This document shows, in pieces, positions 3,242-20,000 of a stretch of DNA of 20,000 nucleotides. The notes below the pieces were generated by a model that searched no databases, was not told the DNA's origin, and was given only the letters and a program-made list of their open reading frames with translations. Where the stretch lies: the NCBI RefSeq assembly GCF_004010195.1, contig NC_057718.1:63324008-63344007 (forward strand). The letters run 5' to 3'. This DNA comes from Chiloscyllium plagiosum. Its lineage: Eukaryota. Both the position numbers and the translations under genes were made by a program. Positions within the stretch are counted from its first letter, which is position 1; each line of letters opens with the position of its first letter.

Positions 3242-3596
3242 GAGATGGAAACGTGTTGCTGGAAAAGCGCAGCAGGTCAGGCAGCATCTAGGGAACAGGA
3301 GAATCGACGTTTCGGGCATTAGCCCTTCTTCAGGAATCTGTGCAGAGGAGATGACCTGGGGGGTGCAGTGAGAGAGGGACTCACTGAAACCTTTGTAGAG
3401 GGAGAAAGAGAGCTTCTTCAAGGAAGGCATCCTTGTAAGAGGATTCGCAGTAGGTTGAAATCTTTGAGGAGAAAGTGAGGTCTGCAGATGCTGGAGATCA
3501 GAGATGGAAATGTGTTGCTGGAAAAGCGCAGCAGGTCAGGCAGCATCTAGGGAACAGGAGAATCGACGTTTCGGGCATTAGCCCTTCTTCAGGAAT
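3242..3596 (-). mobile_element. Penelope-like mini-element: pLTR, ORF 5' stub, partial pLTR
   Basis: 96-bp direct repeat at 3242-3337 and 3501-3596 (1 mismatch seen); spacer encodes MPSLKKLSFSLYKGFSESLSHC, resembling a PLE ORF N-terminus; same pLTR family as 11730-11857. Confidence 0.8.
3298..3338 (-). ncRNA. Minimal type I hammerhead ribozyme motif (PLE pLTR), copy 1
   Basis: Minus strand reads GAUUC-CUGAAGA-A-GGGC-UAAU-GCCC-GAAA-CGUC-GAUUC: conserved CUGANGA and GAAA boxes, perfect 4-bp stem II, palindromic ACGU in place of stem III. Confidence 0.65.
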
Positions 3597-10945: not shown

Positions 10946-11857
10946 GTAAAAAAATGTGGCACTGGAAAAGCACAGCAGGTCAGGCAGCATCTGAACAGCA
11001 GGAGAGTCAATGTAAGACCATAAGACATAGGAGTGGAAGTAAGGCCATTCAGGCATAAGCCCATCATCAAGAATATGGAGGGGGAAGTGGGCTGAGAGAC
11101 AAATAGGGGAGTGAGTGTAGGAAGACAGCTGAGAAGGTGATGGTGGATGCAGGTGGGGGGCTAACAGTGGTAGTTCAGTGAGGAGGGTGAAGTGGATAGG
11201 TGGGAAGGAAGATGGACAGGTAGGACAGGTCAAGAGGGTGGTGCCAAGTTGGAGGGTTGGATCTGGGATGAGGTGGGGAGGGGCAGGGGAGATATGGAAA
11301 CTTGTGAAGACACCTTTGATGCCGTGTGGCTGAAGGGTCCCAAAGTGGAAGATGAGACACTCTTCCCCCAGTTGTCGGGTGGCTTGAATTTGGTGGTGGA
11401 GACGGCCCAGGGCTTGCATGTCCTTGGGTAGTGGAGGAAGAACTGGAGGAAGAACGCCTCAACTTCTACTTGGGACCCTTCAACTGCATAGCATCAACAT
11501 CGACTTCATCAGTTTCCAAATCTCCCTTCCCCCCTCATTCCAGATCCAACCCTCCAACTCGGCACCACCCTCTTGAACTGTCCTACCTGTCTATTCTTCC
11601 TTTCCACCTATCCACTCCACCCTCCCCACCAACCTATCACTATTACTCCCGACCTGTATCCACCTATTGCCTTTCCCCCCCAGCCCACCCCTATCCTATT
11701 TATCTCTTAGTCCCCTTTCCCCCTCCACATTCCTGATGAAGGGCTTATGCCTAAAATGTCGACTCTGGTGCTCCTCAAATGCTGCCTGACCTGCTGTGCT
11801 TTTCCAGCACCACACTTTTCAACTCTGACTCTCCAGCATCTGCATTCCTCACCTTCT
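10946..11857. mobile_element. Inverted pair of Penelope 3' ends (10946-11430 minus; 11431-11857 plus)
   Basis: Both arms encode the PLE C-terminus (LGEECLIFHFGTLQPHGI on minus; LEEERLNFYLG on plus) and end in the pLTR; imperfect TSD ccaatctaatcaaga (10931-10945) / cccatctgatcaaga (11858-11872); mutated hammerhead core at 11733-11760. Confidence 0.85.
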
Positions 11858-15599: not shown

Positions 15600-16300
15600 G
15601 GGTTTCTTACAAGACCGCAAACCCTGGCACTGGAGAAAGGCTGCTATCAACTCAAGCGCCAGGCCTCGTTACCATTGACAACGCGGCCGCCGTGTGTCAA
15701 TGACGTGCCCCCCTCCCCCACAACAACAATCTCAAGGCCCTCACCTCCTCGGCGACCAATGGATTCTGGCTGATTCGTAACGGTTGGGCTTTCCCTCTCT
15801 CATACAGCGTCGAGGGTGTCCTGGTCTTTGGGTTCATGGGAGTTTTGATGCAGGAGGTAATGAGAACCGAGAACCGATGGGGATTCTGCATCCCGTCAGG
15901 ATTTCACCGCCAGCTCTTAGAGCAACGGTCACTCCACCGGAGGGAGGGGGGGGTTAATGTTACGGGGAGCCCGGAGGGCCAAAAAAGGTCATCTTTCCAC
16001 AGCGATTATTCCAATTCGGTCTGTTTTATCTGTCTCTACCGAGAAAAGCACAAAGCTGATTGTAACAATGGCGAACCTATCAATATTCAAGTTAATTGCT
16101 ATAAAAAATGATAGATTTTGGAGTGAGTTTAGGATGTTGTTATCATAGATACCAGGTCAGTGAGCAGGACAGCTGGTTCACCATGCACGGTGACGTCAAT
16201 AAAGCGGTTCATTCCCCACACTGGCTGAGATTATCGAGAAGGTCCAACCTTTTCAACCTCGCCTCAGACGTGTTGAACTGCAGGTTAAACTACCTCCAGT
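15600..16300. promoter_or_regulatory. CpG-enriched putative promoter / first-exon region
   Basis: No recognisable repeat; visibly CpG-rich against CpG-poor flanks; X-box-like GTTACCATTGACAAC 15668-15682, TGACGTG 15701-15707, CCCCTCCCC box, CCAAT 15756-15760, full CRE TGACGTCA 16191-16198. Confidence 0.5.
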
Positions 16301-16456: not shown

Positions 16457-16845
16457 GTCATGTACCATATTATTGACCAGGCCAGACCCCCTCAAAACAT
16501 TTCAAGAAGGTAACCCAGACCCTAACTTTTCTAGTAGTTTTGAGCAGGTTTAATGTTGATATTCCAGGAGTGATGCAGCTGATCAAAACTCTTCATTTTT
16601 AAACAAAACAACTTATTTTACAGAGTACGAAATGAAACACAAAGAGATCAGAAGACAGAATAACTTAAATTATCCGAAAACCTAATGGACTATCCCAATT
16701 TAGTTAAGCTGTTCCAAATTCCTGCAACAATCCCCATAAGCACCCCTTGCCAAAAACAGGTAAAATCAAACACAGGGTCTCACAGGAGAGAGTGATTCAG
16801 CATGGAACATCTTTATGTAGCTGTTTCTTTTGGATTCTTAGGTAA
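16457..16845. mobile_element. Probable older LTR-retrotransposon LTR fragment, truncated by the ERV
   Basis: Begins TGTCA; resembles a common shark interspersed LTR-like repeat (recognition from memory, no internal second copy). Confidence 0.4.
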
Positions 16846-16849
16846 CAAC

Positions 16850-17504
16850 TGTGGGATATAGGTAAATTAATATTTCTTCTGCAGTTCTGCAATTCTGCAA
16901 TTATAATTTCTGATACAAAGTAAATGAACTCACATCAGTGTGTGGTTGGTTTGGCCGGGAGCTGAGTCAACAAGAATGGAAACTATGTGGAGGAAATATA
17001 TAATTGTATGCCAGCATGAAACGTGATTGCAAAACAATGGTAGAAATACAGGCACTAGGTAAAATGCTGTGAAGAGAGGCCTGTATAAACAGTAGGTTTC
17101 CCACTTGTACAGAGACACAGGAACAAACCCCAATTAAAAGGGCTTAGTGATAAGATGCTGTGAGGGGCAGCGCAGATGGAGGGAGTAGATAATGGTAAGC
17201 AAAGGATGGGATGAGGTCAAACGGCCTTGTGAGGTCAGAGTAAGCATTTTGTCACAGACAAGACCGGATAAACAGGAATAATGGGCCCAGTCTTACGGAA
17301 CTGGAGGAAGAAGATAGGGGAAGAGCAATGTAAAACAAAAGAAGCCAAATTATATAAATATTGAGCGTTTGTCGAATTCAGTGTGTGTTTTGTCCCTGCC
17401 TTGTGACATCACACCCACTTACAAGTGTAAAATAAATGACACCACTGATTCAGATTTTTGTCTCGGACTGAAATTATTGAAGTGTGTGAGCTTTGTTTCT
17501 CACA
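16850..17504 (+). repeat. 5' LTR of the ERV (about 655 bp)
   Basis: TG...CA ends with imperfect inverted termini tgtggga / tctcaca; TATATAAA 17351-17358; AATAAA 17431-17436; PBS starts 2 nt after the CA. The 3' boundary is firm; the 5' boundary is inferred because no 3' LTR is in the window. Confidence 0.75.
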
Positions 17505-17506
17505 AT

Positions 17507-17523
17507 TGGGGGCTGTCCGGGAT
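17507..17523 (+). promoter_or_regulatory. Primer-binding site, tRNA-Pro (copy 1)
   Basis: TGGGGGCT-GTCCGGGAT versus the canonical MLV PBS-Pro TGGGGGCTCGTCCGGGAT (one-base deletion). Confidence 0.92.
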
Positions 17524-17734
17524 TTTCTTCCATCGCCGGGGAGGGGGGTGGCTGGCCTTGGACACTGGGAAGACGCATCCCGTTCCCCATTGAGGAGCAG
17601 TCTCGTGTCCCGGTTTGGTCTGCTCCCTTGGGTGACTGGTACGGATCCCACAAGAGAGACATCTGAATCAGACAGTGATGGGAGGTTGATAGGTAATACG
17701 GCGAAAAGGGGCCAGGCAACTCTGTGCACAGACC

Positions 17735-17743
17735 AAGGTAAGG
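17735..17743 (+). promoter_or_regulatory. Putative major splice donor of the ERV leader (second copy at 18203-18211)
   Basis: AAG|GTAAGG between the PBS and gag, the position expected for a retroviral major splice donor. Confidence 0.6.
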
Positions 17744-17975
17744 AAATTGACTTTTAAGTATTGCCTTGGTGGCCAGGATTGAGTTTTAGTAGTTAATAAG
17801 GGACGAACGAAGGAACTCAATATTGGTTGTGCCGTGGAAAAGGAGACAGCCTCCGGGGAAACAAAAGATGAAAAAGGCAATGGAAATGGAGGAGTGTAAA
17901 ATAAATGACACCACTGATTCAGATTTTTGTCTCGGTCTGAAATTATTGAAGTGTGTGAGCTTTGTTACTCACAAT

Positions 17976-17992
17976 TGGGGGCTGTCCGGGAT
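17976..17992 (+). promoter_or_regulatory. Primer-binding site, tRNA-Pro (copy 2)
   Basis: Identical sequence within the tandem duplicate. Confidence 0.92.
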
Positions 17993-18289
17993 TTTCTTCC
18001 ATCGCCGGGGAGGGGGGTGGCTGGCCTTGGACACTGGAAGATGCATCCCGTTCCCCATTGAGGAGCGATCTCGTGTCCCGGTTTGGTCTGCTCCCTTGGG
18101 CGACTGGTACGGATCCCACAAGAGAGACATCTGAATCAGACAGTGATGGGAGGTTGATAGGTAATATGGCGAAAAGGGGCCAGCCAACTCTGTGCACAGA
18201 CCAAGGTAAGGAAATTGACTTTTAAGTATTGCCTTGGTGGCCAGGATTGAGTTTTAGTAGTTAATAAGGGACTAACGAAGGAACTCAAT

Positions 18290-18605
18290 ATGGGTTGTGC
18301 CGTGGAAAAGGAGACAGCCTCCGGGGAAACAAAAGATGAAAAAGGCAATGGAAATGGAGGCGCGTTCCCTTACAGCATACCTCCAGAAAGTCCTTTGGGC
18401 AGGATGTGGAATTGGAGAAATAATACTTGTACAAGGGAGAAAGATGATTAGATATTGTTGCTTTGTATGTACTAAGGAATCCATTCTTCGTCCTGCTGTC
18501 TTCTGGCCAAAGTACAGGTCGGACGAAGACTGGGTTTGTAAATATCTGAATTTATATGTCAATGTGTGAGAGAGAGAGAATGAAAAGAGCTGTACAGCTG
18601 GTAGA
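18290..18605 (+). pseudogene. gag: gag matrix (MA) domain, frameshifted
   Basis: ATG 18290: MGCAVEK...IPPESPLGRMWNW..TREKD (stop 18449), frameshift to KMIRYCCFV..VFWPKYRSDEDWVCKYLNLYVN; IPxxSPLG and WPxxGS-type motifs of class I ERV matrix. Confidence 0.85.
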
Positions 18606-19309
18606 AAGTTTAACCCTTTGTGATTTGGTCTGAATGAACATTTGTTTGTTGGTGATTGAATATTTGTGTTTTATTCCCTGGAGCTTGAGTTCCAGGACTG
18701 TTTTGAATCTGATTTTTATTATGGAAACTTAACATGATTTCTTTTAAGGTTAAGGATTCTATAGAGATTATGAAAAAAAGAATGATAACTCCTGTTCTTT
18801 TTACAGATCATGACTGCCTTATTATCAGTTTCTAACTAATCTCTTTTATCTTTACATAAAAGTGATTTATGGAGGACAGTTGAAGTTTCAGTTCAACATT
18901 AGATTGTAGTAAAAATAAAATCCTGTGGTTAATATCTGTGACCTTGGATTCGGCCATTGTTCATGCATTAGAAGTTTATTTTTAAACTTGAATAGAAAAA
19001 TTCTTTTAAGGCAGCTCTGATTTTTTTCACGACCTATAGTATTGTAATTGAGCAATGATTGGTCAGGACTACTTAAGAAAACTAATTTTGGATTGAAATT
19101 AAGGGACTAAAACCGGGTGATTACAATGGATTTCAAAATTGGGAACTGTATGCATTTTACATTTTAAATATTAAATACTGAATAAATGAATGTAAATATA
19201 TGAATATATTTACAAGTTTGGAACAGGCTTTAAAGTTAGTCAAGCATGAATTGATGAATTGGTGTTTGAAGATATGGGGAGCTAGAAATATTGCAATATT
19301 TCTTTAAGA

Positions 19310-20000
19310 AAGAAAAAGGGGAAGAATGTAATGACTTATCCCCTTCGGGAGGTACCCATAGGGGACAAAGAGATTGGGTTTGTAAGTGCCCCCCTCACCA
19401 GTGGGGAGGTCAGAACATTTAAAAAGGAGATGAAGGTCCTGGTTGAGGTTGAGGATCCGGTAGAGTTGTCTGAACAAATTGATCAATATTTGGGACCCAG
19501 TCTGTATACGTGGGCTGAGTTAATGTCTATTTTGAATATACTATTTACTGGGGAAGAAAGAGGACTTATATGAGGAGTAGCCACTAAAATATGGGACAGG
19601 GAACACCCGATTGGAGATAGGGATGCTGGACAGGGAGAGGTAAAGTTTCCCCTCAGAGATCTCCAGTGGGAAAACCAAAACCCGGAGCATAGAGAAGAAA
19701 TGAGGGAATTGAAAGACCTGATTCTAAAAGAATCTAAGAGAGGCAGTTCCGAAGTCACAGAATTTGACTAGAGCCTTTGAAGTTAGACAGGAGAAAGATG
19801 AGACTCCGCATTAAGGGACTTAATGCGGAAATATTCTGGAATGAACCCTGAGGACTCAGTGGCACAGGGTCTTTTGAAAGTACATTTTGTGACAAAAGCG
19901 TGGCCAGACATACAGAGAAAGATACAGAAGATAGAAGGATGGAGTGAAAAACCATTAGATGAATTGTTGAGAGAGGCACAGAAAGTGTTTGTAAAGAGGG
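19310..20000 (+). pseudogene. gag: gag capsid (CA, Gag_p30-like), disrupted
   Basis: Y|PLREVP..GFVSAPLTSGEVRTFKKEM..EDP..YTWAEL..LFTGEER, TGA at 19571 (likely from CGA), frameshift near 19735, partly deleted major homology region VRQEKDETP, HFVTKAWPDIQRKIQKIEGW..PLDELLREAQKVFVKR. Confidence 0.92.

Follow-up and report, generated by a model that had tools for sequence, protein, structure and literature searches.

An ERV on the forward strand carries, between positions 17424 and 18360 of the window (the whole 20,000-nt stretch of DNA that was analysed), a head-to-tail duplication that reaches from the end of its LTR across the primer site and the leader into the first codons of gag. The duplication in the sequence is likely a real event rather than an artefact. 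With a probability of about 0.6, we read it as a single blunt genomic tandem duplication that would have taken place on the host side, after insertion, in an already decaying provirus. The element itself is assigned to the class I (gamma/epsilon-like) ERVs on the basis of a Gag_p30 match and two Gag relatives, the window being without pol.

TRF describes the region as one tandem array with a period of 468, 2.0 copies, and 97% matches, and a repeat finder returns the same pair. Copy 1 (17424-17892, forward strand, 469 nt) contains the end of R with its AATAAA, U5, the PBS, the leader, and gag codons 1-24 without the start codon. Copy 2 (17893-18360, forward strand, 468 nt) continues into gag, as family reads do at the equivalent of the unit end. 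The unit starts 7 nt 5' of the AATAAA and ends within gag codon 24; the extent given in an earlier note on this DNA is thus reproduced both by TRF and by the copy comparison. That note spoke of a doubled R-U5-PBS-leader-gag start, which holds from U5 to the gag start, but R is doubled only in its last part, the rest lying outside the unit. Between the copies there are 10 substitutions and one single-base indel, corresponding to a distance of 2.1% (95% interval 1.0-3.9%). About four of some ten differences had been described as CpG transitions, and 4/10 substitutions were indeed counted as CpG-type, which is above chance (P 6e-5 to 6e-4, given 17 CpG sites in either copy). This had been taken as a sign of decay as opposed to an assembly echo; an echo of sequencing errors is excluded by it, but a join of two alleles would differ at CpG too. 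The host is CpG-depleted (o/e 0.22), and its repeats may be of a cartilaginous-fish type.

The region 16600-17945 was compared with 4 of 24 public runs, namely three DNA runs (two of one organism and the third of another) and about 2% of an RNA run. These data place the element in a large family that is present in both organisms sampled. From these family data and a TATA box, the 5' LTR is delimited to about 655 nt on the forward strand (16850-17504), with U3 extending to about 17380, R at about 17381-17452, and U5 at 17453-17504. The LTR 3' end at 17504 is marked by loose ends with mixed continuations in 46, 36, and 48 contigs of three DNA runs, and the poly(A) site at 17452 by A-tails there in 11 family RNA reads. 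The LTR 5' end would lie at 16850, where a TGTG terminus matches the inverted LTR end. Transcription, and with it R, would start at about 17381, judged by the spacing from a TATATAA box at 17351, and the duplication would accordingly begin about 43 nt inside R and not at the RNA 5' end. With the 5' end so placed, the LTR has the TG...CA ends, the TATA box, and the poly(A) signal followed by a PBS that are expected of class I ERVs.

The two poly(A) signals and two primer sites reported earlier are both there. The AATAAA motif of the LTR lies on the forward strand at 17431-17436, with family transcripts ending at 17452, and its second copy at 17900-17905. A PBS-like site of the family-majority form is found on the same strand at 17507-17523, 2 nt after the LTR end, with a second copy from 17976; we take it to be tRNA-Pro-like. 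It is one letter shorter than a minority form of the family, the short form being the majority in all four runs. The possibility that the short PBS is a lesion common to both copies was rejected, as it is the longer form that is in the minority (9 and 17 contigs; 3/24 reads). The two splice donors that had likewise been claimed are present as AG/GTAAG motifs (17736-17742 and 18204-18210, forward strand), but as motif matches alone, with no spliced read among the family reads listed from the RNA run. Within U3, short repeated blocks occupy 17040-17270, and family contigs skip and jump back there, which indicates that the number of enhancer repeats varies within the family.

Downstream of the leader, gag is preserved as remnants. 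A 5' (matrix-like) remnant at 18290-18563 (forward strand), with a frameshift near 18440, shows 45-71% identity to residues 3-89 of two intact relatives (P0001 and P0002), and a separate protein search with the matrix fragment confirmed 0/5 candidates. It is followed by an AT-rich stretch of 776 nt (18564-19339, forward strand, 30% GC) that has no Gag similarity and occupies the place of about 135 Gag residues of the intact relatives; this stretch may be shared by the whole family as the sign of a non-autonomous lineage, or it may have been inserted later. The capsid remnant (19340-20000, forward strand), which leaves the window at its end, matches Pfam Gag_p30 with an E of 1.3e-9 (above the curated cut-off), the p30-type capsid of class I ERVs, and shares 56-59% identity with two full-length Gag_p30 + zf-CCHC proteins (2/319 candidates). 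In all, 5-6 lesions are counted. Against the intact relatives, gag shows the frameshift near 18440, two stops (18567 and 19571), the AT-rich stretch, an offset of 6 nt at 19448, and changes of frame near 19730 and 19810. From its sequence, the gag of this provirus is judged to be dead.

The comparison of the copies confirms that copy 1 has ATT at 17822 where copy 2 has the gag ATG at 18290. The latter had been called the one live ATG, a description that does not fit a frame that closes after 53 codons in a gag with this load of lesions and behind nine further ATGs between the putative transcription start and 18290. One of the nine opens a frame of 88 codons in the ORF list (17868-18134, forward strand), which runs over the junction out of frame with gag and is regarded as a by-product, not as a proposed gene. 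The loss of the start codon in copy 1 therefore clears nothing. The chance that one of 5-10 random changes falls on the start codon amounts to 3-6%, for a site that was chosen after the fact.

Several other features were observed around the provirus. Just 5' of the LTR, at 16670-16790, lies a short hAT transposase-like remnant with a weak Pfam match to Dimer_Tnp_hAT (E 0.14, below the cut-off), a sequence that occurs in many copies in the runs. A CpG-rich island with CCAAT and TGACGT motifs (15600-16300, o/e 0.72, 50% GC), which precedes the LTR by about 600-1200 nt, is possibly a host promoter. Further away, two 96-nt segments (3242-3337 and 3501-3596) are 99% identical and separated by 259 nt; similar copies occur near 10950 and at about 11730-11830. 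They resemble, in our estimation, the tandem ends of Penelope-like elements, an identity for which Pfam gave no support. Rfam returned 0 matches on 16500-20000, and the ARAGORN count was also 0.

The junction at 17892-17893 joins gag codon 24 to mid-R without filler, and it is blunt, with 0 nt of microhomology on both sides. Unequal recombination had been put forward as one origin, but a homologous crossover is ruled out by the 0 nt of identity at the breakpoints. A 6-nt word near both breakpoints was considered as a slippage seed and rejected, since such a word occurs at a chance level of 16% (2870/17744 random pairs) and is absent from the junction. A head-to-tail copy with no homology at its junction is what a blunt genomic tandem duplication would leave, and the lack of microhomology favours this origin; genomic breakpoints are often blunt. 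In the available text of PMC4056370, they account for 35% of CNV breakpoints in fly and 11-19% in human, in a table of mostly deletions; for small tandem duplications (a few bases) that arise where no repeat existed before, the available text of PMC2997547 gives end joining as the source. Under the preferred reading, a class I ERV would have inserted and started to decay, after which one non-homologous germline event (end joining or replication-fork restart) would have copied 468 bp head to tail. That the unit covers the LTR end, the PBS, the leader, and the start of gag would be chance; both copies would subsequently have diverged by neutral drift, and the signals present twice would have no viral role. 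The duplication, its blunt junction, the anatomy of the LTR, and the broken gag are established, whereas a date later than the insertion, the pathway of repair, and the lack of function are inferred. What speaks against a duplication on the host side is the coincidence that the unit covers most of the cis-signals, which an origin in reverse transcription would explain.

A duplication later than the insertion is suggested by the balance of shared differences against private changes, although this dating is not decisive. Among the 143 variant rows against the family, 40 were listed, 21 of which lie inside the unit. Of these 21, 18 set both copies apart from the family and three occur in copy 1 alone; overall, each copy has about five private changes. 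At 9/18 of the shared rows, the other letter makes up at least 90% of the depth in all three DNA runs. At 17443, inside R, both copies have the letter that is rare in the family. Three of the shared changes are CpG losses (17577, 17687, and 17775), where independent decay of the copies would lead one to expect 0.6 overlaps (P(>=3) about 0.009); against this, the family letter is down to 73-88% of the depth in two runs at two of these three sites. A rough CpG clock (two private losses per copy and three shared) would place the duplication at about 40% of the age of the provirus. For gag, the 5-6 lesions compare with about 3.5 predicted from the CpG-clock age (P 0.27) and with 1.4 from the copy split alone (P 0.014). 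If the copy divergence is set to its upper bound, the lesion test becomes weaker, with P 0.12. It assumes that each substitution is accompanied by 0.1 indel and 0.045 nonsense change, and the indel figure is based on the one indel by which the copies differ. The 18/21 shared rows with their three CpG losses, the lesion load of gag, and the breakpoint inside R are suggestive of a duplication after insertion. At a shark substitution rate of 2.2e-10 per site per year, as assumed in the available text of PMC4422223, the 2.1% would translate into roughly 50 million years, neither the rate nor the host being certain.

The shared differences may also go back to a rare source lineage that predates integration, or they may reflect later drift of the family mainstream, and the gag lesions could already have been carried by a non-autonomous ancestor. 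In the 34 listed ERV rows (16850-17892), the locus differs from the family by G for A 13 times and by C for T once (P 0.005), and several of its differences are clustered at 17838-17869. This excess and the cluster indicate differences between lineages. ADAR editing was considered as an explanation for the excess of G for A and is not supported, a 5' G being present at 7/13 sites. More generally, the bases next to the G-for-A sites presumably match neither ADAR nor APOBEC preferences.

A one-off reverse-transcription error at integration is possible but, in our view, unlikely. The unit starts in R and spans exactly the region that is handled in the strand transfers, the shared differences could predate integration, and template switches are known, from the available text of PMC3187697, to yield insertions and duplications. 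With 0 nt of homology between donor end and acceptor site, however, any switch would have to be a non-homologous one, and reverse-transcription switching is homology-dependent, the non-homologous kind being at least 1000-fold rarer than the homologous one (PMC3187697). A run-off would have put the breakpoint at the RNA 5' end, where it does not lie if the start site has been placed correctly from the TATA spacing. Moreover, to judge from the three CpG losses common to the copies and from the number of lesions in gag, the provirus would be older than the split of the copies. The route proposed earlier, in which the minus strand runs through U5 and R and then jumps back into gag, fits poorly on account of the missing homology and of the breakpoint inside R. 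A second route can be conceived from the layout, in which a short minus-strand primer product would jump into gag, run to the RNA 5' end, and transfer normally, so that each end of the provirus would carry a composite LTR (16850-17973). That such an aberrant first strand transfer produced an enlarged LTR of the form U3-R-U5-PBS-leader-gag start-R'-U5 (about 1.1 kb) at both ends, with the second PBS as the true one, strikes us as improbable. If the 3' end had the same composite LTR or if the junction recurred elsewhere, the locus would document a rare error of reverse transcription in nature. Such an error would bear on how LTRs gain sequence and on the tolerance of retroviruses for an internal PBS and poly(A) signal, and a composite LTR would be a germline fossil of an LTR that captured its own leader.

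An assembly artefact, in which two haplotypes or reads were joined head to tail, is in our judgement quite improbable. It would agree with the family data at the equivalent of 17892, where three loose-ended contigs in each of two DNA runs, and all 12 RNA reads as well, continue into gag, and where the RNA depth is about 13 just before and 0 beyond 17905. No read or contig crossing the junction is present among those listed (24/7768 pieces, 15/24 joints, and 24/728 loose ends), a listing in which a short junction contig could be hidden, and allelic differences would also be CpG-rich. However, the RNA reads and contigs at 17892 come from other members of the family (1/276 at >=99% identity), and the runs barely recover single-copy DNA, with 1, 1, and 0 contigs extending past the ends of the stretch in the three DNA runs. 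Given this low recovery and the partly listed tables, the absence of the junction says little on an artefact. The assembly itself also argues against one, as there is no N in the window (count 0), a blunt join offers an assembler no overlap, and each copy has private CpG losses. A divergence of 2.1% would, moreover, be high for two alleles. Searches of metagenome contigs with the junction pattern and of viral contigs with a U5-PBS pattern gave 0 matches each, to which no weight is attached since these collections were not built for vertebrate DNA. With the capsid fragment, the same collections gave 0/240 confirmed candidates (metagenome) and 1/21 candidates (viral), the latter a 23-residue match taken as chance.

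The earlier note had finally hinted that the double-leader form may have been replicated, the loss of the first ATG removing an upstream truncated gag ORF. In such a virus, selection would have eliminated the gag start codon of copy 1; copy 1 does lack that codon, and nearly all of the family depth has the other letter there. We regard this as highly improbable, because the start-codon change is within reach of chance, no open gag lies behind a leader cleared of upstream starts, the copy-1 letters at 17599, 17805, and 17824 reach at most 0-2.3% of the family depth (a rough bound, as depth sums are not copy numbers), the internal poly(A) signal would lie 500 nt into the RNA, and reverse transcription deletes direct repeats efficiently, with a loss of 41% in one cycle for a 110-bp repeat and higher losses for longer repeats (PMC3187697).

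Read as one neutral duplication in a dead provirus, the locus is of little import and serves at most as an internal clock. It is also a reminder that viral signals may occur in duplicate for reasons other than the biology of the virus.

Among known systems, the element is closest in layout to the class I ERVs known from cartilaginous and bony fishes, such as the elephant-shark CmiERV lineages II/III, with which it shares the order LTR-PBS-leader-gag and a Gag_p30 capsid (PMC4422223 and PMC4977317, in the parts available). Unlike in these, its gag is broken and interrupted by the AT-rich stretch. ZFERV, another fish ERV with internal tandem repeats, has a 517-bp region with nine short repeats, whereas a second U5 or PBS is not described in the accessible text of PMC3382231; the similar length is regarded as coincidental. 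A search by title and abstract, in a collection with few subscription papers, listed no published ERV with a duplicated U5-PBS-leader, and PMC8247158 was rejected as a match because it concerns PCR primers. With duplications made by template switching in reverse transcription, the unit has in common that it covers the strand-transfer region, but the homology that such switching requires is absent here and such repeats are removed quickly by the same process (PMC3187697). The likeness to blunt, non-homologous tandem duplications in animal genomes extends to the head-to-tail arrangement, the absence of microhomology and filler, and the neutral, CpG-rich divergence afterwards (available text of PMC4056370 and PMC2997547). 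At 468 bp, however, the unit is far from the few bases of the duplications in PMC2997547 and from the mostly deletions of the table in PMC4056370, as far as both texts were available, so that the pathway is an extrapolation. The exact doubled arrangement may be undescribed; its parts and the process behind it are ordinary.
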